In this document: positions 1,403 through 35,852 of the stretch, in pieces
Layout: every line of letters starts with the position of its first letter
Numbering within the stretch: the stretch's first letter is position 1
Virus record (IMG/VR): IMGVR_UViG_3300037755_000487
Span: 1-35,852 of that record
DNA length: 35,852 bases
Source: a virus
Taxonomy: Duplodnaviria > Caudoviricetes
Reading direction: 5' to 3' (one strand)
Program-made: the position numbers and the translations under genes
Notes under the pieces: generated by a model
Told to the model about the DNA's origin: nothing
Databases searched by the model: none
Seen by the model: the letters and a program-made list of their open reading frames with translations, nothing else

Positions 1403-4400
1403 GGCGACACCCACCCGACGTTGCTAGTCGAGTACCAATTGCCGCCCGCCGCGCCGAGCTGAAGAAGGCAGACTTGATCACCCGCCGTTGAACTGGAGAT
1501 CGTTACCCCGTCGGCCAGGTCGTTGCCGTCGAGCTGGATTCGATCCGCCGCGTCCGGGTCGATCGAGTAAGCGGCGCCGTCCAGGTTCCGGAAGCAGCAA
1601 CTCTCGCCGAACGGGGCCGCGACGAGCGGTAGGACGGTCGTGTAGGGACCCCCTGTGAGCGCGATCATATCGCCCAAACACTGCGACTCCGTCAGCGTAT
1701 CACCTGCCGACTGAGAATTTGCTAGGCGGACGTACCCAGCAACGAAACTCGACGTGACGAGAGACGTCCCGGTTGCCGCCCCGATGTCCCCGCCCGCGAA
1801 GAGTGCCGAGCCCGTCCCGGATTCGTCGCTGATGATCGCGCGCAGCTTCGCGCTCGTGTCGATCTCGGAGGTGCGCAGCAATGCGGAATCAATCCGAGCA
1901 TCGGCAACGGTTCCGGCCGTGATGTTCGATCCGCTGATGCCGGTTCCGATTTTCGCGCCGCTGAGAGTTCCGTCGGCCAAGTCGTCGAGGTCCGCGTCCC
2001 ACGCCTGCACGCTCGATCCGATGTCGGCGGGGACGAGAGGTAGCGGGCTCCATCCGCGCTCCGAGAGGACGATCCAACCGTTGACGTTATTCGATGCGAT
2101 CCGAACCCGGTCGCCACGGGCTCCGTTCGAGACGATCGAGACGCCGTCGGCCAGATCCACTCCGTTTATTTGAATCCGATCCGCCGCGTTCGGAGTGATC
2201 GTATAGACAGCGTCGTCGAGCGCGTAGAAGGTGCATTCTTCCTTCGCGGGCGCAGACACGGCTTCCAATGTTAGTTCAAATGGTCCACCGATCATCGGGT
2301 GGACTTCACCGAGACAATCGATCTGCGGAACAACGTCGCCAAAGCTGTACGGCGCATAGACCGTTCCACCCTTGATCGTCCCGGTCGTCGCGATCGATCG
2401 CGTTGCCGGGTCGCCCGCGAGCTGGCGAATCGGACCGAGCGACGACTGATAATCGCAAGCGCCAGAGTTGGATGTTCCGACTTTTGCGCAGAATCCTTGA
2501 TCGCCAATGTCGATCGTCACGCTCGACGAAGCGCCGCGCATAGCAGCGCCGGACAGAATGTCCGCATCGAGGAGATCGTCGTAGGTGAAATCAGCGGTGT
2601 CGATCGGGTCCTCCAGATGCGCGCGAATCCGCAGCGTCTGGATATCTCCGCCCGAGGTCGTCGTAATCGCCGGGTATCGTGCGATCGAGAGATCCGAGTC
2701 GTCGACGAACGTCCCGGGCTTGGATCCAGAGAGCACGAGATCGAGATCGAGCATCCCGACCGTCCCAAGCCTCGCGATGCCTCGGAAGCAGTAGTCACCG
2801 GATATTTCGATGCGGCCGTTCAGCTCTTCCGTCGACGAGCCACCGTCGAGCATATACGAGTCCGCGCCTAACGTCGTGTCCTCGCAGTTTGCCCCGGTCT
2901 TGTCGCCGCGAATTCTGAAATCAACATTACCGCCGTTGAGGAACCCGATCGGCCCGTCGATTTCACCTGACAGCGCGATCGAATTTCCGGCCATCGGCGC
3001 GTTGAAATCGAAGAATCCGCCAGGGTTCGCAGGACCATTGATGCTCGTCAACCGCCACCTGAACGCACCGCCGATGGTGGTCGTCGCTGCCCCCTGCGTC
3101 GTCGGGTCGATCACGTCCGCCCAGGGACGCTGATGAAATCCTCGATCGCCCTCCCAGTACGACGCGCCCGAGACGTATGTCTGTGTTGCTGCGCCGACGG
3201 ATAGCGACGCATCACCGCGGAGATCAAGCTGGGGATTCGCGCTCGCGAGGTCGCTCCGGCCTGCGTGGCCGCCGAGCTTCGTGTCAATCAGATAGAGCCG
3301 GGTGGCGTACGGTAGTCCGTCACCCGACACGGCGGCGATTCCCGCGTCGGCCACGAGCTGATCGTCTCCCTCGGTCGCCAGCGCGTAGCGCTCACAGAGT
3401 GCGGTCGGAGCGCCGTCGCACCCCGCGTAGTCGCTGCTCAGGTGTCCGTTCCGAACGATCACGATCGCATCGTGCTGCACACCGCCGCAGACATCGCTCG
3501 ATCCGAGGTAGTACTCGTCGCCGGACGCCTCGACGCAGGGAGTGGGCGTGCCGGCCCCGTCCGTCGAGCCGTAGAACAGCGTGACGTTCTTTTTCGCGCC
3601 GCTCGTCGCGAGTATATGACCGTTGAAATCGATCGAAATGATGGGAGCGTCCGACCCGCCCGTCGGCAGATACCACCGGATCGGTATAGCTGGGTCGTAG
3701 GTGTAGTCGTCGGCGAGGATGACCGACGCCATGATCGTTTCGGTGTTAGTCGCGCTCGGGAGGACGAGCGACTGAAAGTAGGCGTTCAGCTCGCCGTTGC
3801 TCGACACGGCAACGGGGGCACCCAGTGTCCCGGCGACGCGAAGCGCTTCGAGCGCGTCGATGAGGATCTTGTCGGCTGCGCTGAGAACACCGGCGTCCGA
3901 CGCGTTCGCAGCCGGGATCGTCGCATCCGTCCCGGTGTCGCTATTGATGGTCACCTGGGAGGCGGCGGGCGTCGCAGTGAGGTTCGTCGCGCCTCCTCCG
4001 ACGCCCGATCCGCACGGTAGACCCGATGCAGCCTCGACCAGGTCGCCGGTCGCGTCGTACTCCACGCAATTGCCGGCCGTTCCTGCGGTGCCCGTCACGA
4101 GCTGGCCGTCGGTCCCGGTCCGGAGAGTCGCATCGATCTGACCGATGGAGTTGATCGCGCCGTCCGAAATTGAACCGTCCGCCTCGAGGGCCGCGGCATT
4201 TCCGAAATCGCCTGACTCCGGGACGTCGTCCTCCGTCGAAAGGATCCTCGCATTGAGCTCTGCGAGCGCCGCTTCGACGTTCACCGCCGTGAAAATCGAG
4301 CCCGCGTCCTCAATACCGATGAGGCTCGCGCCCTGCCCTGTCGACGTGCTGGCAAGACTCGACGACGCGAGAGCGCCGACCACCTGGCCGACCGTGTAGT

Positions 4401-26155: not shown

Positions 26156-27087
26156 GTGCGGACTCCTCGGTTTTTCACCTCCTCGGAGGCGGACTCCCAA
26201 TCGAAGACGCCGCGAGCGGAGGCGGTCGGCGCGACCTTGATCGGCTTGCGGTTGTTCCACCACCGCAGCATGACGACCTTGGCTTTGGCGGAGAAGGCCT
26301 TGTCCTCGAGCTCCTGGTCCTCGGCTTCGACGGTCGCTGCGATCACGGGCCAGTTCTCGTCGAGCCATTCCGTCGGCGTTGAGGCGCGCGTCCCGTCGAG
26401 TCGAGGCGGCGGCGAACCGTTCAAGAGATTGAGGAGCGGCGAAGACGGGCCTGGAGGAGCGAGGCGATCGCGAGGAATCAGCGGGATCAGGGTCCCTTGT
26501 GCGGTCAGTGTTCGGCTGTTCGGCTGTTCGGCGTGTTCGGCACCGTGTTCGGCACCGTGTTCGGCACCGTGTTCGGCACCATGTTCGGCACCGTGTTCGG
26601 CACCGTGTTCGGCTTGTTCGGCTTGTTCGGTGTTCGGGTGTTCGGCACCTTCGCTCCCTCCTGAGCGAAGCGAAGGAGGGTTCTTCTCTTTTAATAACAA
26701 TGAGATAGAAGAAGCTAAGAAGCGCGCGAGGGCGAGAATCTCGGATATCTGTTCGGCTTGTTCGGCACCGTGTTCGGCGTGTTCGGCACCGTGTTCGGCT
26801 CGTGTTCGGCTCGTGTTCGGCTCGTGTTCGGCTCGTGTTCGGCACCGTGTTCGGCTCGTGTTCGGCACCGTGTTCGGCTCGTGTTCGGCACCGTGTTCGG
26901 CTCGTGTTCGGCACCGTGTTCGGCTCGTGTTCGGCTCGTGTTCGGCGGACCGGCACCATGAATTCACGGTGCTGATCGATCGTCCCCAGCGCCCTCGATA
27001 GTCGCGCTGCGTCCGCACAATGCCCGCCGCGCGGTCAGCCGCGAGCATCTCGAGCGCTTGATCTTTCGTCAGCCGTTCCACTCTCAC
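26152..27087 (-). CDS. Putative replication initiator (lambda O-like position) with internal repeats
   Basis: N-terminal HTH-like TQRDYRGRWGRSISTVNSW; AEHG/EPNT repeats; lies between Cro-like and DnaC-like genes. Confidence 0.65.
   Translation of the reverse strand: MRVERLTKDQALEMLAADRAAGIVRTQRDYRGRWGRSISTVNSWCRSAEHEPNTSRTRCRTRAEHGAEHEPNTVPNTSRTRCRTRAEHEPNTSRTRAEHGAEHAEHGAEQAEQISEILALARFLASSISLLLKEKNPPSLRSGGSEGAEHPNTEQAEQAEHGAEHGAEHGAEHGAEHGAEHGAEHAEQPNSRTLTAQGTLIPLIPRDRLAPPGPSSPLLNLLNGSPPPRLDGTRASTPTEWLDENWPVIAATVEAEDQELEDKAFSAKAKVVMLRWWNNRKPIKVAPTASARGVFDWESASEEVKNRGVRT
26509..26946. repeat. Two arrays of TGTTCGG(C) repeats flanking an AT-rich spacer; candidate replication origin
   Basis: About 14 copies in 26509-26646 and about 18 in 26750-26946, mostly 11- and 12-bp units; AT-rich 26681-26722 between them. 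Confidence 0.8.
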
Positions 27088-27346: not shown

Positions 27347-27386
27347 GTTCGGGGATAGTGAACACGCAATCCGCGATCCCGTCAAG
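27347..27386 (-). promoter_or_regulatory. Leftward phage promoter/operator
   Basis: Minus strand CTTGACGG-N13-GTGTTCACTATCCCCGAAC, then GGAGG and GTG; same layout as the element at 33026-33065. Confidence 0.75.
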
Positions 27387-27427: not shown

Positions 27428-27435
27428 GGGCTGCT
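27428..27435 (+). repeat. Target site duplication, left copy (GGGCTGCT)
   Basis: Identical to 32698-32705 and flush with the TIR. Confidence 0.9.
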
Positions 27436-27458
27436 GGTAGTGTCCTTCCCCTGAGGGC
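27436..27458 (+). repeat. Left terminal inverted repeat GGTAGTGTCCTTCCCCTGAGGGC
   Basis: Exact reverse complement of 32675-32697. Confidence 0.95.
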
Positions 27459-27468
27459 ATCATAAAGC

Positions 27469-30018
27469 CTACGGCCGCGTGCCGAAGGAGTCGGGTTCCA
27501 ATATTCCCGTTAGCTCGTCCCATGACTGGCGTGCTTCTACGATCGCCTCAAAGTACTTCTGAACTGGGTCGGCAATTTTCCTCCGATCTTCAGGAGACTG
27601 CGGTAAGGGAACTCGAACCTCTCGCCAATGGTCTCCCAGGTGCTCTCGGTTCGTCTGCATCAACGTCAAGGTTGGATACTGCTCCTGCACCACCTTGAGT
27701 GACATGAGAGCGAGTAACAAGAACGGCGTGATGCCTTCCTCGTTCTCTAACACCCGGATGACAAGTACCTCCTTGGTCAACAGAATATTCGTCTGCCATG
27801 GGAGCACGAGGGAGAACTGACCAATGTTTGAAGAGGCTCTGGCTGGCGAGACCAAGTCGCCGTAGTGAAGCTCCGGACCGCCACGCTTTTTCTCGTCGGC
27901 CACGCTTTCATGAACGAAGTTCGTCGGATTCTCGTTGATTCGCCAGTTCTTGAGGTCTGTGACCTTCACGTAGGGAATTGCTCCAGTAGCCCGCGCATTT
28001 CCAGGCGGCGAGCCGTGCCCCCCGTAGGTAGCGACGATCCCACGATCGGACAGGTCGCCGAGAGTCACAATCTCTGACGGGTGCTTATTGCCCCACGCTC
28101 GCACTGCCTTCTCTGAATCCTTCCGCCACCAGAATCTAGGAACTAAGACGCCCCGCTTCCTTGCCTTTTCCTGAGGAACCAGAAAGCGAAATCGTGCATT
28201 CCCTGGCGCTGCCTTTGCTTTCTCCTTCCCGCGGTACTCAGCCGCGACGATCTCCTTGACAGCCTCCGCCATCTCATTGTCTAGTTCGCCGGTGCGCTGA
28301 CCAGACTCGTTCACCCTCTTGAGAAGATTTCCCTTCCTGTCTTGGCCGATGGTCCGGGGGAAGCTCATGATAATTTGGTGGCCCTTCGGCGGAGTGCTTT
28401 TGGTCACGAACATTAGACAGGTTTTGGCGCGGCAGAACTCCTCGAATGCAACCATTGGAACATCTACCACGTGGGTAACGGTCATATCGCGGCACACCCA
28501 ATCGACAAACCATCTAAACGTCTTAGAGAAGAGGAAAGTTTCCGGAAGGACGATGGCCATGCGACCACCGGGCTTTAGGAGTTCCAGGTCACGTTCGAAG
28601 AAGGCCAGTCCGAGTTGCTGTTCGACTACATCCTCGCTCGGCTTCCAGTGCTTGCCTTCAAGTCTCCACCGACGGCACGTCTGCAATTTCTCCGACCGTC
28701 CAACTTCCACACCGACTTTAAGATTCTTTCCGAAAGGAGGATTGGTCATGACAAGATCGAACGCGGCGGATTTAACGGCCCCCTCGAGATCGTCGCTCCG
28801 ATCGGGCCAATCACCGCGGTCGATCATGTTCGCACGGTAGACGTGAGAGCGACCGTCTCCAAGAAGCGTGAGGTACGCCTTGCAAAGCTTTGTCGATACC
28901 ACATCCTTGTCCGCGGCCATCAAGCTTTCTTGAGCCCATTGCCGCTTCGCCTTGTCCTTCGCGTCGGCGGACAAGTGCTCACGTTCGTCGATTCCCTTGA
29001 ATACATGGTCGAGGGACGCTGCAAGGAAGCCACCAGTACCGCACGCTGGGTCGATGACTCGTGATTTGTGGTCCGGGTCGAGAATGGAAACCACGCAGTC
29101 CACGATTGGTGGCGGGGTGAAGTAGGCACCTTCCTCACCCTTGAGGGCTCTGCCGCGAAGAATCTGGAATGCCGTTCCGACTGCTTGTCGATCATGGCCA
29201 AGGAGCCGATACGGTTGAAGTGTCCGAACGACTGTCTCGATGCTCGCATCATCAACGTGAAATCTATCCGTCTCGTCAGTGAAAACAGAGCTTAGGCGAC
29301 TCTTTACATCCTCGAAAAATACACGTATGGCCTCGCCTGTATTTGGGCGAGATCGACCAAGCTGAAAGGCGAGCGAACGTTCCGGCTCCAACTCACCATG
29401 CTGCTCGTCGACAATCTTGCATATCAGTAGATTCGCAAGGTCGTTGAGAATGAACTCATCCCGATTAACGTGGGTGTCCTGGGCAGCGATGTAGTCGCGG
29501 AGCCGTCGGAATATTTCGCCAAGATTGGGCGGCGGGATCAGGTCAGAGTAATGAAGCGGCTTATCGGTCTCGGTTGGAGCAAGGGGATCTGTCGGGCGAG
29601 GGATGGGTGCGTAGTCGTTGACCTCGAATCCATCACGGGTTTTGTAGACAAGCCGATGAGACGCGCCGTTGAACCAGATTCCGAGCCGGGCTTCAGGTTC
29701 AAGCGATAGGTATGTCTTTAGCTGACCAATTCCTTCTGTCTCGTCAGGCGCTTTGCACTCTACAAGAATCTGAACATGGTCAGGGTCACCACGCGTCTCG
29801 ACCGAGTCAAAGATCGCGATATCTACTGGGAACCCTTCTCGGCGCGCTCCGGATGGAGTCCGCGGCACACGCCATTGTGGTCGCGTGATGATCTGTTGCG
29901 GATTCCATCCCATGCGTTGAGTTAGATAGAAGACGAGCGGTTGTGTGGCGGACTGCTCTTCCTCCCCGGCGAGAATCTCACGTCCCGAAAGCGCATCAAT
30001 GACTACAGATTTTGCCAA
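27469..30018 (-). CDS. Single-chain restriction-modification enzyme (nuclease, N6-adenine MTase, target recognition domain; Type IIG-like)
   Basis: N-terminal PVDIAIF...VECKAP...GQLKTY nuclease; GAYFTP, DPACGTGGFL (motif I), NPPF (motif IV); C-terminal HsdS-like IPYVKVTDL region. Confidence 0.88.
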   Translation of the reverse strand: MAKSVVIDALSGREILAGEEEQSATQPLVFYLTQRMGWNPQQIITRPQWRVPRTPSGARREGFPVDIAIFDSVETRGDPDHVQILVECKAPDETEGIGQLKTYLSLEPEARLGIWFNGASHRLVYKTRDGFEVNDYAPIPRPTDPLAPTETDKPLHYSDLIPPPNLGEIFRRLRDYIAAQDTHVNRDEFILNDLANLLICKIVDEQHGELEPERSLAFQLGRSRPNTGEAIRVFFEDVKSRLSSVFTDETDRFHVDDASIETVVRTLQPYRLLGHDRQAVGTAFQILRGRALKGEEGAYFTPPPIVDCVVSILDPDHKSRVIDPACGTGGFLAASLDHVFKGIDEREHLSADAKDKAKRQWAQESLMAADKDVVSTKLCKAYLTLLGDGRSHVYRANMIDRGDWPDRSDDLEGAVKSAAFDLVMTNPPFGKNLKVGVEVGRSEKLQTCRRWRLEGKHWKPSEDVVEQQLGLAFFERDLELLKPGGRMAIVLPETFLFSKTFRWFVDWVCRDMTVTHVVDVPMVAFEEFCRAKTCLMFVTKSTPPKGHQIIMSFPRTIGQDRKGNLLKRVNESGQRTGELDNEMAEAVKEIVAAEYRGKEKAKAAPGNARFRFLVPQEKARKRGVLVPRFWWRKDSEKAVRAWGNKHPSEIVTLGDLSDRGIVATYGGHGSPPGNARATGAIPYVKVTDLKNWRINENPTNFVHESVADEKKRGGPELHYGDLVSPARASSNIGQFSLVLPWQTNILLTKEVLVIRVLENEEGITPFLLLALMSLKVVQEQYPTLTLMQTNREHLGDHWREVRVPLPQSPEDRRKIADPVQKYFEAIVEARQSWDELTGILEPDSFGTRP

Positions 30019-30071: not shown

Positions 30072-30908
30072 CTATCGACCGTAAATTTCTCCGGCCTCGA
30101 CTAGGTCATCGATCCGCCATTGACGGTCGGCAATTCCGGCAGCGATTGCCGGAGTCGTCTTAATCGTGCTGTGATTCCGCACGAAGTTGTAGTACGCAAA
30201 GTGCAGCGAAACGGCCGCTTTCAGGTTGTCGGCCTTCTTCGAGAAGCCGTTGGTGAGCCGGGTCAAGCGGCGCATTCCCATGCGCATGGTGAGGTTCTGG
30301 CGTTCGACGTGAGACGTTGAAATCCGGCTGGGATCGGGGCTCCCGAAAACCTTATCCTTGTCGACTCCGACGACCATGGGCGGGCTGTACCTACGCTCAC
30401 CCAGGTCTTCGACGCGGAAGCGCTTTACGATTCGGCCGTAGTCGACGTTGTTCTTTCCGAGCTGGCCCGCGATCGCGAACTTGTAGGCGGCGAGCTTGTC
30501 GGTGCTGATCTGCACGCGGCCCTCGACCCGTCGAGCGACGACCTTGAGCAGCGCGTTCGCGTCGGGCTGAGTGCGCTTCCCGACGTGATGCGCGGGAACA
30601 AGCTTTGATTCGGGATCCATGGCAACCCACGTCCAGAAATCCCCGACCTTTCGCTCGTCGTCGTCCTTCTGGACCCGTGCCCGCTTCTTTCCGACGAACC
30701 CCCAAATCTCGTCGAGCTGAAGCTCTCGGCACTCGACGTGGCGGATATGCTCCTCCGAGAGCCGATCGCAGCCCTTGCCGGTCTGGACAACCACCTTGGT
30801 GATCGTGTCGCGGTGAGCACCCGTCATGCGCTCAGTCGAGCGGATCGAGCTGCCTTCGACAAGGCATCGAAGGATTTGGGCTTTTGTGTCGGTGGTGAGT
30901 CGTGCCAT
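30072..30908 (-). CDS. IS1-family DDE transposase (single ORF)
   Basis: Start re-called to ATG 30908; HTH LVEGSSIRSTERMTG; DDE motifs QLDEIW, STDK and HVERQNLTMR; C-terminal FSKK...YNF. Confidence 0.9.
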   Translation of the reverse strand: MARLTTDTKAQILRCLVEGSSIRSTERMTGAHRDTITKVVVQTGKGCDRLSEEHIRHVECRELQLDEIWGFVGKKRARVQKDDDERKVGDFWTWVAMDPESKLVPAHHVGKRTQPDANALLKVVARRVEGRVQISTDKLAAYKFAIAGQLGKNNVDYGRIVKRFRVEDLGERRYSPPMVVGVDKDKVFGSPDPSRISTSHVERQNLTMRMGMRRLTRLTNGFSKKADNLKAAVSLHFAYYNFVRNHSTIKTTPAIAAGIADRQWRIDDLVEAGEIYGR

Positions 30909-30968
30909 GTAGATTAATGTATTACGTTTAATGTTGGCAGTCAATGGTTTATGTGATACAAAAAAGGC
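30909..30968. promoter_or_regulatory. Divergent promoter pair for transposase and RHH gene
   Basis: Minus: TTGACT-17-TACATT, 7 nt before the ATG. Plus: TTGGCA-17-TACAAA with extended -10 TG, 6 nt before the ATG. Confidence 0.6.
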
Positions 30969-31154
30969 ATGGCAGCAAAAAAGAAACGGCCGCCGGGAAG
31001 ACCAAGGCTTGCCCCGGGTGAATCGAGGCAGGAAACCGTGACGCTCAGGGTGCGGTCTGAGGATGCCGAGAGAATGAGGATGGCGGCTGATAGTGCTGGG
31101 CTATCCTTTTCGGCGTGGGCGAGAAAGATTCTCACCGAAGCCGCCGGCAAATAG
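30969..31154 (+). CDS. Ribbon-helix-helix (CopG-like) regulator
   Basis: 61 aa; GRPRL...TVTLRVRSEDAERMRMAADSAGLSFSAWARKIL. Confidence 0.8.
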   Translation: MAAKKKRPPGRPRLAPGESRQETVTLRVRSEDAERMRMAADSAGLSFSAWARKILTEAAGK

Positions 31155-31226
31155 GTGGAACGGTGGGGAATCGAACCCCAGAGGGCCAAGGTGTAGAGCC
31201 GGGCCTGGGAACCATCCCGCCGCCCC
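31154..31226 (-). ncRNA. Non-canonical tRNA-like cloverleaf with CUA anticodon
   Basis: Folded by hand: GGGGCGG C GGGA-TGGT-TCCC A GGCCCGG-CTCTACA-CCTTGGCC CTC TGGGG-TTCGATT-CCCCA CCGTTCC A CC. Confidence 0.6.
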
Positions 31227-31319
31227 GAGCGTTGGGTGGAGAGCGGCGCGACGTAACCCGCCAAGGCACGATCGAAGTGCCGCTCTCCTCTCGGCCGCCC
31301 AACCGGCCTCAGCGTATCC

Positions 31320-32060
31320 TCACGAGCCTTCCTCCTCGTCGGTGTTGGGATCTTCATCCGCCCCTTGCGCCGACTCATATGAGCGCATTTGGTCGATGAG
31401 CCCGAACACGAAGTCGCGGTCAGCGGCGTCAAGCGCGAAGAGATCGAGACTGGCCGAAAGGGTGACTGTGCCGCCGCTGAGCTCGATAGTTTGGGAAGGG
31501 CCGCTCGGCTGCTCAGGTTGAGCGTTGATGCGATCGTTGTTTCGATTGCGCTTTGCTGCCGACTTGCGAGCAGCCTTCTTTCGCGGCGATCCCGCTCCGG
31601 CTTTCGGCCCCGGCCGCGGCTTCGCCAGGAGCGGGGAAACCTTGACACCCACGTAGTCCAGGCAGGTAATCAGGAACCGCACGGCTTTGGTGCGCGTTGT
31701 GCCGGAGACGCCATACGCTTCACCCATCCGCTCGGACAACTCGGCAGGCGTTGTCTTCAGGAGGTCTAGAGCGAAAATGTCCGAATACCGAGATTCGATG
31801 ATCGCTCGAAGCTCTCGCTTGCGAGCGTCGTCGTCCGCGACTGCGACACTATGCATCGCCTCCAACGGCTTCCCGGCGTCATCAATCATGCCAAGGAATT
31901 TGAACCCGGCGAGCAATTGAGTCTGAACACCGCCCGAAAGCCCCGGAAAGACGCTGCGATCAATTCGGTTGGGAACGCCCTGGGAGAGCTGTTTCAACGC
32001 GTTCTCGAAGGTCCCCCACGCGACGTATACGGCGGCGGGCGAGTCGTCTGAGTTTGCCAT
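31320..32060 (-). CDS. DUF5343-like protein (probable winged-helix DNA-binding)
   Basis: YVAWGTF...VPNRIDRSVF...LLAGFKFLGMIDDAGKP...YGVSGTTRTKAVRFL; GGAGG RBS; family call from recall. Confidence 0.65.
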   Translation of the reverse strand: MANSDDSPAAVYVAWGTFENALKQLSQGVPNRIDRSVFPGLSGGVQTQLLAGFKFLGMIDDAGKPLEAMHSVAVADDDARKRELRAIIESRYSDIFALDLLKTTPAELSERMGEAYGVSGTTRTKAVRFLITCLDYVGVKVSPLLAKPRPGPKAGAGSPRKKAARKSAAKRNRNNDRINAQPEQPSGPSQTIELSGGTVTLSASLDLFALDAADRDFVFGLIDQMRSYESAQGADEDPNTDEEEGS

Positions 32061-32176: not shown

Positions 32177-32374
32177 ATGGATCAAAAAATCGAGATAGGT
32201 CAGTCAGTTACGCTTCTTTCTGCTCATGGTCCGATCAATCGCGTAGTTGTCAACGTCCTCGATGGTATCATTCTGGTCTGCAAGGCCGAGGAGTTTCAGG
32301 CGGCGCGAAGGGAGCATCGGGATCCAATTTCGATCGGCTTTCCGATCGATGACATCGTTCCTACGGCTGGCTGA
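32177..32374 (+). CDS. Small hypothetical protein (65 aa)
   Basis: ATG follows a TATAAT; beta-rich ORF closely followed by the next gene. Confidence 0.6.
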   Translation: MDQKIEIGQSVTLLSAHGPINRVVVNVLDGIILVCKAEEFQAARREHRDPISIGFPIDDIVPTAG

Positions 32375-32378
32375 TCCC

Positions 32379-32669
32379 ATGAATCAGACCCCTCTCCCTG
32401 ATTTCATCGCCGCCATCCGCGCAATGCACGGCGCTGCTTCCAAACTCCTGACACGGGAGCCCGTCCACGAGCAGTTCGAAGGCGAGACGGTCTGGGAAGG
32501 CGAAGTGCTGGTGTTCGAGCTGTCAGACCATCCCACAGCCTCGAAGTGCTTCGCCTGGGAGGTCGACGGGGAGATCACGGCTGTCCTGGCCGAAGGGCCA
32601 ATTCAGACCGCTACAGACGCCGTGAGAGCTTCGATCTGGGCGGATGGGTCAGTGGAGCAGGAGGCGTGA
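32379..32669 (+). CDS. Hypothetical protein (96 aa) at the right end of the transposon
   Basis: Start re-called to ATG 32379; PVHEQFEGETVWEGEVLVFEL..HP.A..CFAW...AVRASI; stops 5 bp before the TIR. Confidence 0.7.
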   Translation: MNQTPLPDFIAAIRAMHGAASKLLTREPVHEQFEGETVWEGEVLVFELSDHPTASKCFAWEVDGEITAVLAEGPIQTATDAVRASIWADGSVEQEA

Positions 32670-32674
32670 GTCTG

Positions 32675-32697
32675 GCCCTCAGGGGAAGGACACTACC
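32675..32697 (-). repeat. Right terminal inverted repeat
   Basis: GCCCTCAGGGGAAGGACACTACC, reverse complement of 27436-27458. Confidence 0.95.
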
Positions 32698-32705
32698 GGG
32701 CTGCT
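32698..32705 (+). repeat. Target site duplication, right copy (GGGCTGCT)
   Basis: Identical to 27428-27435. Confidence 0.9.
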
Positions 32706-33002: not shown

Positions 33003-33065
33003 GTTCAGTTTCCCCGAACATTAGTCTTGACGGTTCTCTATCCGTAGTGTTCACTATCCCCGAAC
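33003..33065 (+). promoter_or_regulatory. Rightward phage promoter with two operator-like sites
   Basis: GTTCAGTTTCCCCGAAC (33003-33019), TTGACG (33027-33032), GTGTTCACTATCCCCGAAC (33047-33065), then GGAGG and ATG 33082. Confidence 0.75.
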
Positions 33066-35348: not shown

Positions 35349-35388
35349 CCACACAACCGGCCGCAGGAGCGGCCAAGAGGAGAATAAG

Positions 35389-35852
35389 ATGGACGCGAAA
35401 ACTCTATTGGGCGGCGATCCCACTAGCTGGGATTTGTATTCGATCGACAACACCACCCTCACCCAGGTGCTGCCGTGTCTCGACGTCACCACCCTCGCCC
35501 AGGTGCTGCCGCGTCTCGACGTCACCACCCTCGCCCAGGTGCTGCCGCGTCTCGACAACACCACCCTCGCCCGGGTGCTGCCGCGTCTCGACGATCTGCG
35601 CCTCGTCCAGGTGCTGCCGCGTCTCGACGTCACCACCCTCGCCCAGGTGATGGCGTACCTCGACAACACCACCCTCGCCCGGGTGCTGCCGCGTCTCGAC
35701 AACACCACCCTCGCCCGGGTGCTGCCGCGTCTCGACGTCACCACCCTCGCCCGGGTGAGGGCGTGTCTCGACCTGGTAGTACCCCGCCTCGAACGGCCGT
35801 ACTCCCAGATCCTTGCTGCCCTAGAGGCGGGCGGCGAGCTGGCCATGAGGCG
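35389..35852 (+). CDS. 12-aa tandem repeat protein (3' end outside window)
   Basis: Translated by hand; AGGAG RBS; MDAKTLLGG...(LD[VN]TTLA[QR]VLPR)x9...VPRLERPYSQILAALEAGGELAMR, open to the edge. Confidence 0.75.
   Translation, partial: MDAKTLLGGDPTSWDLYSIDNTTLTQVLPCLDVTTLAQVLPRLDVTTLAQVLPRLDNTTLARVLPRLDDLRLVQVLPRLDVTTLAQVMAYLDNTTLARVLPRLDNTTLARVLPRLDVTTLARVRACLDLVVPRLERPYSQILAALEAGGELAMR
35444..35772 (+). repeat. Nine tandem 36-bp coding repeats
   Basis: TCGAC recurs at exact 36-bp intervals from 35444 to 35768; no spacers. Confidence 0.9.

Follow-up and report, generated by a model that had tools for sequence, protein, structure and literature searches.

Alanyl- and seryl-tRNA synthetases recognise their tRNAs without the anticodon, and such anticodon-blind charging meets the need of a tRNA that reads a stop codon. 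In tRNA-Pyl, the discriminator base is G73. Irregular tRNAs have been described near transposon and toxin-antitoxin genes, some of them Ser, Leu or G3.U70 bodies with a UUA anticodon (Mukai et al. 2017, PMC5389517). In that report, G3.U70 allo-tRNAs that were given CUA inserted alanine at amber codons in E. coli, and six allo-tRNA(UAU) linked to transposons or toxin-antitoxin genes were inactive as suppressors after conversion to CUA. Some archaea have natural tRNA-Pyl with C37, whose suppression becomes stronger on mutation to C37A (PMC11467909), and G1-C72, G2-C71, G3.U70 and A73 are conserved marks of tRNA-Ala (PMC9976931). Here, we describe a conserved compact tRNA-shaped gene that is built into one clade of IS1 transposons and has alanine marks and an invariant loop.

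The window, which is the whole 35,852-nt stretch of viral DNA analysed here, contains phage genes for the terminase, portal, capsid, tail and baseplate, and a 5.26-kb IS1-family transposon is inserted in this phage at 27436-32697. Target duplications of the IS1 family are 8-9 bp long; the present element has perfect 23-bp terminal inverted repeats (27436..27458 and 32675..32697), an 8-bp target duplication (27428-27435 and 32698-32705) and a PF03400 match at E 2.6e-8, which bears out the claim of an earlier sequence-only reading that the RNA lies inside a transposon. On the minus strand, the order is a DUF5343-like gene, a leader, the tRNA-like gene, an antisense ribbon-helix-helix (RHH)-like gene, a promoter-like site, the transposase and a methyltransferase. 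The transposase is a 278-aa IS1-family DDE enzyme ending at a TAG stop (30072..30908, minus strand), and a predicted sigma70-like promoter (30916..30944, minus strand) lies 7 nt before its ATG; the transposase mRNA of the window is predicted to be leaderless, and the same arrangement of promoter and ATG is found in L040. The passenger gene encodes an N6-methyltransferase of restriction-modification type (27469..30018, minus strand). The RHH-like gene (30969..31154, plus strand, 61 aa; NikA-like at E 7e-6, just below the cut-off) is antisense to the RNA, and its TAG stop overlaps the 3' trailer of the RNA. The DUF5343-like gene (31320..32060, minus strand, 246 aa) ends 93 nt upstream of the RNA, and its product is predicted to be a winged-helix protein of DNA-binding type that resembles the DNA-recognition parts of FokI and BrxA at middling Z scores of 7.2 and 5.7. 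Foldseek gave no match to it at E<=0.001, and a literature search that barely covered subscription journals found nothing on DUF5343. From the modelled fold, it is plausible that DUF5343 acts as a regulator of the RNA-containing unit. Two small genes without a Pfam family (32177-32374 and 32379-32669, plus strand) also occur in related elements.

Several further features of the phage were observed. The transposon sits between the divergent early-gene arms, and the insertion is flanked by 19-bp inverted repeats at 27347-27365 and 33047-33065 (also 33003-33019), which are probably phage operator sites. Tandem repeats of 11-12 bp lie within a replication-type gene (26520-26948), and ten 36-bp repeats at 35372-35844 encode a 12-residue repeat protein with an MgtE_N-like match.

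The tRNA-like gene extends for 71 nt from G1 to the discriminator A73 (31156..31226, minus strand) and carries alanine identity marks. Its 7-bp acceptor pairs 31226-31220 with 31163-31157 and includes G3.U70 and G4.U69, with A73 at 31156; a single linker C (31219) is followed by a 4-bp D-stem with a UGGU loop (31218-31207); the anticodon arm consists of 4 bp, a 1x2 internal loop and 2 bp, and carries the loop CU-CUA-CA (31192..31198, minus strand, with CUA at 31196-31194); finally, a 3-nt variable region leads to a 5-bp T-stem with a UUCGAUU loop. The 3' end reads CCU, so CCA is not encoded. Every structural feature listed in the sequence-only reading was recovered by direct reading and parsing, including the absence of U8 and the atypical C37. 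Of the canonical tRNA features, U33 is present, and U8, the two-base linker, the standard D-arm, the 5-bp anticodon stem and a purine at position 37 are absent.

A descriptor consisting of a 7-bp acceptor and a 5-bp T-arm gave one match in the window, and one of 200 dinucleotide shuffles also matched; when the alanine marks were required in addition, no shuffle of 200 matched. The folding energy (z = -0.94) is by itself not distinctive, the cloverleaf at -31.6 kcal/mol is not the minimum-energy fold (a rod-like fold reaches -33.4 kcal/mol), and 7-nt and 8-nt loops on the anticodon arm are equal in energy. The argument for the cloverleaf is therefore drawn from homologues and not from free folding. 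The suggested check with tRNA finders gave a divided answer: ARAGORN found no gene in the window and Rfam gave no match over the RNA at E<=1, but ARAGORN called the relative L449 as tRNA-Stop(tta), the only one called among seven compact members tried.

Fifteen homologues of the window RNA were found, 14 of which adjoin IS1 transposases, mainly of one clade; the full set thus comprises 16 RNAs of 67-71 nt, 15 of them beside an IS1 transposase. L040 and L112 were found as neighbours of DUF5343 genes, L145, L162 and L131 with a loop-blind pattern in viral contigs (2 of 84 matches adjoined an IS1 transposase), and L444 and L445 with a loop-blind-type pattern in 251 Myxococcota genomes; a covariance model built from 10 sequences recovered the remaining homologues. 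Six of the 16 members trained the covariance model, which found eight of the other ten. In 151 genomes of the class of genome G001, the best nine matches of the model (49.6-76.5 bits) all adjoined an IS1 transposase; a search of 151 genomes of its order gave 12 matches, of which 11 belonged to the compact RNA family. Matches at or below 46 bits (nine loci read) and L473 proved to be ordinary tRNA-Lys and were dropped. Because the members are akin and come mostly from one Myxococcota order, these counts overstate independence. A strict pattern run on 401 Acidobacteriota genomes gave a single match, an ordinary tRNA-Ala, and no family member; the model R1 found none at 34 (of 37) viral transposase loci of other branches; loop-based patterns in viral contigs returned, among the matches listed, mostly ordinary tRNA-Val and no new member; a plasmid search gave no match, a phage search only T-arm matches of 29-32 nt, and among the sequencing runs listed no carrier of the RNA appeared. 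No description of the compact family was found in the literature, with subscription journals barely covered.

G1-C72, G2-C71, G3.U70 and A73 are invariant in all 16 RNAs, as is the loop word U35-A36-C37-A38, and the nine RNAs found by loop-blind queries (L040, L112, L131, L145, L162, L444, L445, L474 and L481) all have UACA. In the model-fitted alignment, which leans toward structure, 96.7% of cells are paired and 6 of 15 pairs changed on both sides; the covariation score is 0.366, compared to at most 0.127 for slid partners, and the slid controls pair at 68% or less. Covariation among homologues had been named as a check, and the stems do covary; the homologues keep the fold, and neither of the refuting outcomes that can be judged from sequence (no homologues with the fold, or a match to a degraded tRNA or tmRNA fragment) arose. 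None of the 16 RNAs encodes CCA, the D-arm varies from 2 to 4 bp, and U8 is absent. Constrained folding of several members gives a four-way junction that lacks both linker and variable loop and has an anticodon arm of 8-9 bp. The likeness to tRNA-Pyl that had been pointed out holds in part: the Pyl-like linker geometry (1-nt linker, 3-nt variable loop) is found in the window RNA, L449, L131 and L447, the last being the closest relative of the window RNA (60/71 identical), and several members have neither trait.

Upstream of the RNA, the leader is a 93-nt structured stretch between the DUF5343-like gene and the RNA. It holds a hairpin with a nested hairpin (31231..31308, minus strand), whose 6-nt loop is able to pair with 31236-31231, and the predicted pseudoknot ends 4 nt before G1. 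All six pairs of this pseudoknot can form in the window, L112 and L443, with letters changed on both sides. Directly 3' of the RNA lies a weak terminator-like hairpin (31131..31151, minus strand; two found, 1.5 expected in shuffles). A recurring structured leader was also seen in L059, L096, L109, L064, L078, L102, L103, L162 and L172, in the 150 nt that follow the DUF5343 stop or precede the RNA; it combines a short AUG-led stretch, a nested hairpin and a hairpin whose loop, CACC, can pair with GUGG further downstream. It has no Rfam match among the loci scanned, and it is possibly an undescribed pseudoknot motif that controls the cargo behind DUF5343.

A transposase-based search gave 15 matches in 11 of 121 genomes, of which ten lie beside a compact RNA, two beside another tRNA body, one belongs to another branch and has no RNA, and two are incomplete at a contig end. 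In a quick tree, the RNA carriers, whose transposases are 45-66% identical to that of the window, form a 15-row clade (SH-aLRT 99) plus L482 and L162, separate from a 15-row clade without the RNA. DUF5343, by comparison, was rejected as the determinant; a compact RNA occurs in only 1 of 49 metagenome or viral DUF5343 loci (examined out of 59 fetched, many of them short) and in 1 of 16 genome loci. The link to IS1-like transposases or DUF5343 genes that had been anticipated thus narrows to one IS1 transposase clade. In L038, L039, L041, L043-L045, L047, L097, L098 and L107, the position some 150 nt past DUF5343, which irregular tRNAs occupy in other elements, is taken by a conserved small reading frame of about 40 codons (starting M..YF..KSVFVRAY).

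Two gene layouts occur at the 15 IS loci, and they bear on whether the RNA works in cis. In the direct layout (9 of 15), the RNA lies 17-52 nt before the transposase ATG; together with the hairpin or pseudoknot that ends just upstream of G1, and with weak matches of relatives to the mascRNA/menRNA model (RF01684; 27-30 bits, sub-threshold), this would agree with a processing or regulatory signal, whose tRNA shape recruits RNase P and 3' nucleases to cut the transposon transcript and so sets transposase output or matures the upstream mRNA end. The mascRNA plays such a processing role for MALAT1. In the separated layout (6 of 15, including the window), however, 255-294 nt and an antisense RHH gene stand between the RNA and the transposase, and a promoter-like site precedes the ATG in the window, with similar hexamers seen by eye in related loci. 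Moreover, promoter-like hexamers and no gene end lie upstream of the leader hairpin in L444, L445, L448, L471 and L472, and cutting needs only an acceptor and an elbow, not an invariant G3.U70 or a UACA loop common to two bodies. Both RNA body kinds (see below) and both layouts are mixed in the one 15-row clade (SH-aLRT 99, quick tree), so the shared component is the RNA with its loop; as the RNA itself is what all layouts share, this argues for a released trans-acting product and against a purely cis reading, which we regard as rather unlikely.

The loop word UACA raises another possibility, namely that the RNA is a nuclease decoy or stress sensor that exposes a site for a MazF-type toxin RNase or an anticodon nuclease on a stable charged tRNA body. 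UACA is the sole invariant loop word and is kept even in L445 and L447, the two members without a stop anticodon (L447 has GUA, and L445 is one loop base short); RelE/HigB-like, HicB-like and RtcB-like genes were seen by eye in related loci, and a UACA-specific MazF has been described (PMC5635168). On the other hand, no such nuclease gene lies within the window element, and for a decoy there would be no need to conserve alanine or serine identity. In addition, position 34 is a pyrimidine in 14 of the 16 RNAs (U 11, C 3, G 2), which gives the central triplets UUA (11), CUA (3) and GUA (2) and places a stop anticodon at the centre of a 7-nt loop in 14 of 16. A decoy appears a doubtful explanation. 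The amber anticodon CUA of the suppressor originally proposed is that of the window RNA but a minority variant, the family being mainly of ochre type. Position 33 is U in 7, G in 5 and C in 4 of the 16, so that U33 is lacking in nine. Three other candidates for the loop and its surroundings were tried and rejected: no suitable -10 box for the loop as a promoter hexamer was seen by eye, a UGUA target for pairing with the loop had no position common to both layouts, and an upstream reading frame running through the RNA is conserved in some loci but not in all.

The register of the loop was compared across 18 RNAs, with L445 left out. The 7-nt register, which puts YUA at the anticodon position, is the best paired overall, with 30:40 paired in 18/18 and 29:41 in 16/18, compared to 12/18 and 9/18 for the 8-nt register, and is tied with the latter in the window RNA. 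A shifted register would present UAC with A37 (Val-like) or a four-base YUAC anticodon, inserting alanine at valine codons or causing +1 frameshifts. Such a register, Y-UAC-A, puts a purine at position 37; the window RNA, L447, L445 and L494 fold the 8-nt loop equally well or better; 31:39 is unpaired, as an A.C or C.A mismatch, in 8 of 18; and U33, A37 and stem mismatches are traits of efficient quadruplet tRNAs (PMC11231383). Nevertheless, the 8-nt loop costs 6 of the 18 RNAs their second stem pair and 9 their third, a perfect 6-bp stem closes the 7-nt loop in L449, and no conserved frameshift target was found in the element, which leaves this account improbable. A functionless relic of an ordinary tRNA-Ala or a tmRNA end captured by the transposon, which the tmRNA-like acceptor and T-arm (L131 matches the tmRNA model at 28.3 bits, below the threshold of 47) and the cloverleaf's failure to be the minimum-energy fold might suggest, is contradicted by the compensatory changes and by the marks and loop that stay invariant across transposases as divergent as those above, and is scarcely credible.

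Stop codons were also surveyed. The transposases of RNA carriers end in TAG in 14 of 16 cases, with one TAA and one TGA (a frameshifted copy); transposases without the RNA have a UAR stop in 17 of 34 viral and 12 of 17 DUF5343-linked cases, and RHH genes in 7 of 7 distinct copies. We give this bias no weight, because descent and 4-bp overlaps with convergent genes are able to account for it. Such a 4-bp overlap of the transposase TAG stop with the stop of a convergent cargo gene, which differs between loci, was seen in L472, L475, L479, L480, L486, L487 and L040. At L478 (G163:C98:2382-3188), a single case, an otherwise intact transposase has an in-frame TAG and the element carries a UUA RNA. 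Sequences past the transposase stops are unrelated, giving no conserved read-through product, and in L443 the anticodon and stop are mismatched, with a CUA RNA beside a TAA-ending transposase.

Another finding is that two sister elements (L474/L494 and L481) have an allo-tRNA-type body in the same slot, with the loop CU-UUA-CA. In L474 and L481, this body is about 9/3 with a long variable arm, G73 and an encoded CCA, and the gene order (leader, RNA, RHH gene, transposase) is that of the separated layout. In the viral L490, a loop-containing pattern found an 8/4 body with CU-CUA-CA beside one of the small genes of the element; in the stretch L490:3001-5523 of a 323-kb viral contig, this amber allo-type tRNA with C37 adjoins an AAA-ATPase-like gene and, by eye, lies near an RtcB-like RNA ligase gene. 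Other irregular tRNAs were seen beside DUF5343 genes or IS1 transposases (L042:5758-5845, L051:5898-5987, L071, L105:5841-5942, L012:4903-5003, L020, L022 and L026), among them a Leu-type body with UUA (tRNA-Stop by ARAGORN), an allo-tRNA(UAU), Pro-loop forms and others. The viral L122, L124, L127, L142, L151, L160, L172 and L187 (about 3001-3070) hold further compact G3.U70/A73 RNAs that differ in the loop and have no IS1 transposase of the carrier type beside them, and the loop of L127, UU-CUA-GA, is a more regular amber loop. RNAs of 60-67 nt in L143, L146, L153, L321, L322 and L417 resemble, by eye, the tRNA-like domain of tmRNA with one hairpin closing it and no tag frame.

The reading that best fits the homologues is a mobile suppressor chargeable with alanine. 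The alanine marks, the covariation, the invariance of UACA, the 7-nt register and the loop common to two bodies suggest this from sequence comparison; the scarcity of U33, the absence of U8, the D-arm of 2-4 bp, the 31:39 mismatch and the lack of a stop anticodon in L447 and L445 would speak against it, as do the 8-nt loop formed equally easily in the window RNA, the absence of a conserved read-through product and the mismatch in L443. We put the chances about even that the window RNA is a released, alanine-charged, weak UAG/UAA suppressor acting in trans, of which it would be the amber variant. According to this mechanism, the RNA would be co-transcribed from the DUF5343 unit, cut by RNase P at G1, 4 nt behind the leader pseudoknot, and then trimmed at its 3' end and given CCA. 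The host alanyl-tRNA synthetase would charge it with alanine without need of the anticodon, and it would be delivered to a stop codon in the A-site, the long anticodon arm offsetting the shrunken D-arm. Suppression would be of low efficiency owing to C37 and the variable position 33; by analogy with the archaeal tRNA-Pyl, C37 is compatible with weak amber decoding. The least certain step is the purpose, which may be that of a low-dose read-through effector of a toxin- or defence-type cassette; in addition, the RNA may adjust or rescue those genes of the element that end in UAG.

A wider proposal, to which we give somewhat less than an even chance, is that the IS1 clade made a stop-reading minimal tRNA of about 68 nt one of its core genes: with no U8 and often no linker or variable loop, it would yet decode on the bacterial ribosome, would be interchangeable with allo-tRNA bodies charged by another anticodon-blind synthetase, would be tuned down by C37, and would control UAG/UAA read-through, including that of its own transposase. 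If decoding is true, these would rank with the most reduced tRNA bodies in use on a bacterial ribosome, an insertion sequence would be altering how its host ends proteins, and a natural 71-nt amber reader would offer a new scaffold for genetic code expansion. Standard tRNA finders miss the compact family, which also makes testable a point left open by the allo-tRNAs, namely why mobile elements and toxin-antitoxin loci carry irregular tRNAs.

Compared to known systems, the compact RNA fails membership of the allo-tRNAs, tRNA-Pyl and tmRNA on defining features. With tRNA-Pyl, the window RNA shares CUA, the 1-nt linker, the small D-loop, the long anticodon stem and the 3-nt variable loop; the family differs in having A73 in 16/16 together with G3.U70, and most members have UUA. 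As had been stated, the window contains no pyl gene, and PylS exceeded the cut-off in none of five carrier genomes, which may be incomplete and do not include the phage's own host. C37 is shared with some archaeal tRNA-Pyl (PMC11467909). The tRNA-like domain of tmRNA (RF00023) has the same alanine-type acceptor and T-arm and a reduced D-arm, whereas the compact RNA is about 70 nt long, with its halves joined by about 40 nt that hold neither a tag frame nor pseudoknots, and a D-stem and anticodon arm of its own; neither ARAGORN nor Rfam called it as tmRNA in the window. With mascRNA and menRNA, it shares a small cloverleaf behind a structured upstream element and a CCA that is not encoded. In its setting, the compact RNA resembles the allo-tRNAs and the polycistronic tRNA2 group, which also lie beside transposon or toxin-antitoxin genes (as 15 of the 16 compact RNAs lie beside an IS1 transposase), some with UUA and a short D-loop (PMC5389517). 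L474, L481 and L490 are themselves allo-type bodies, and L042, behind a DUF5343 gene, resembles the tRNA2/tRNA-Leu(UUA) rows of that report. The compact RNA differs in its 7/5 rather than 8/4 or 9/3 acceptor branch, the lack of a long variable arm (3 nt in the window RNA), its length of 67-71 nt and its C37, where the UUA rows examined in PMC5389517 have A37. A term search of the supplement of that report gave six rows with TTACA or CTACA, none in the anticodon loop and none starting like the compact family, although its figure S6, a picture, could hold a related consensus. What is new is an alanine body of compact 7/5 form that has C37 and is fixed in an IS1 clade; if the suppressor reading holds, it would function in the manner of the mobile irregular tRNAs of ochre type described by Mukai et al.
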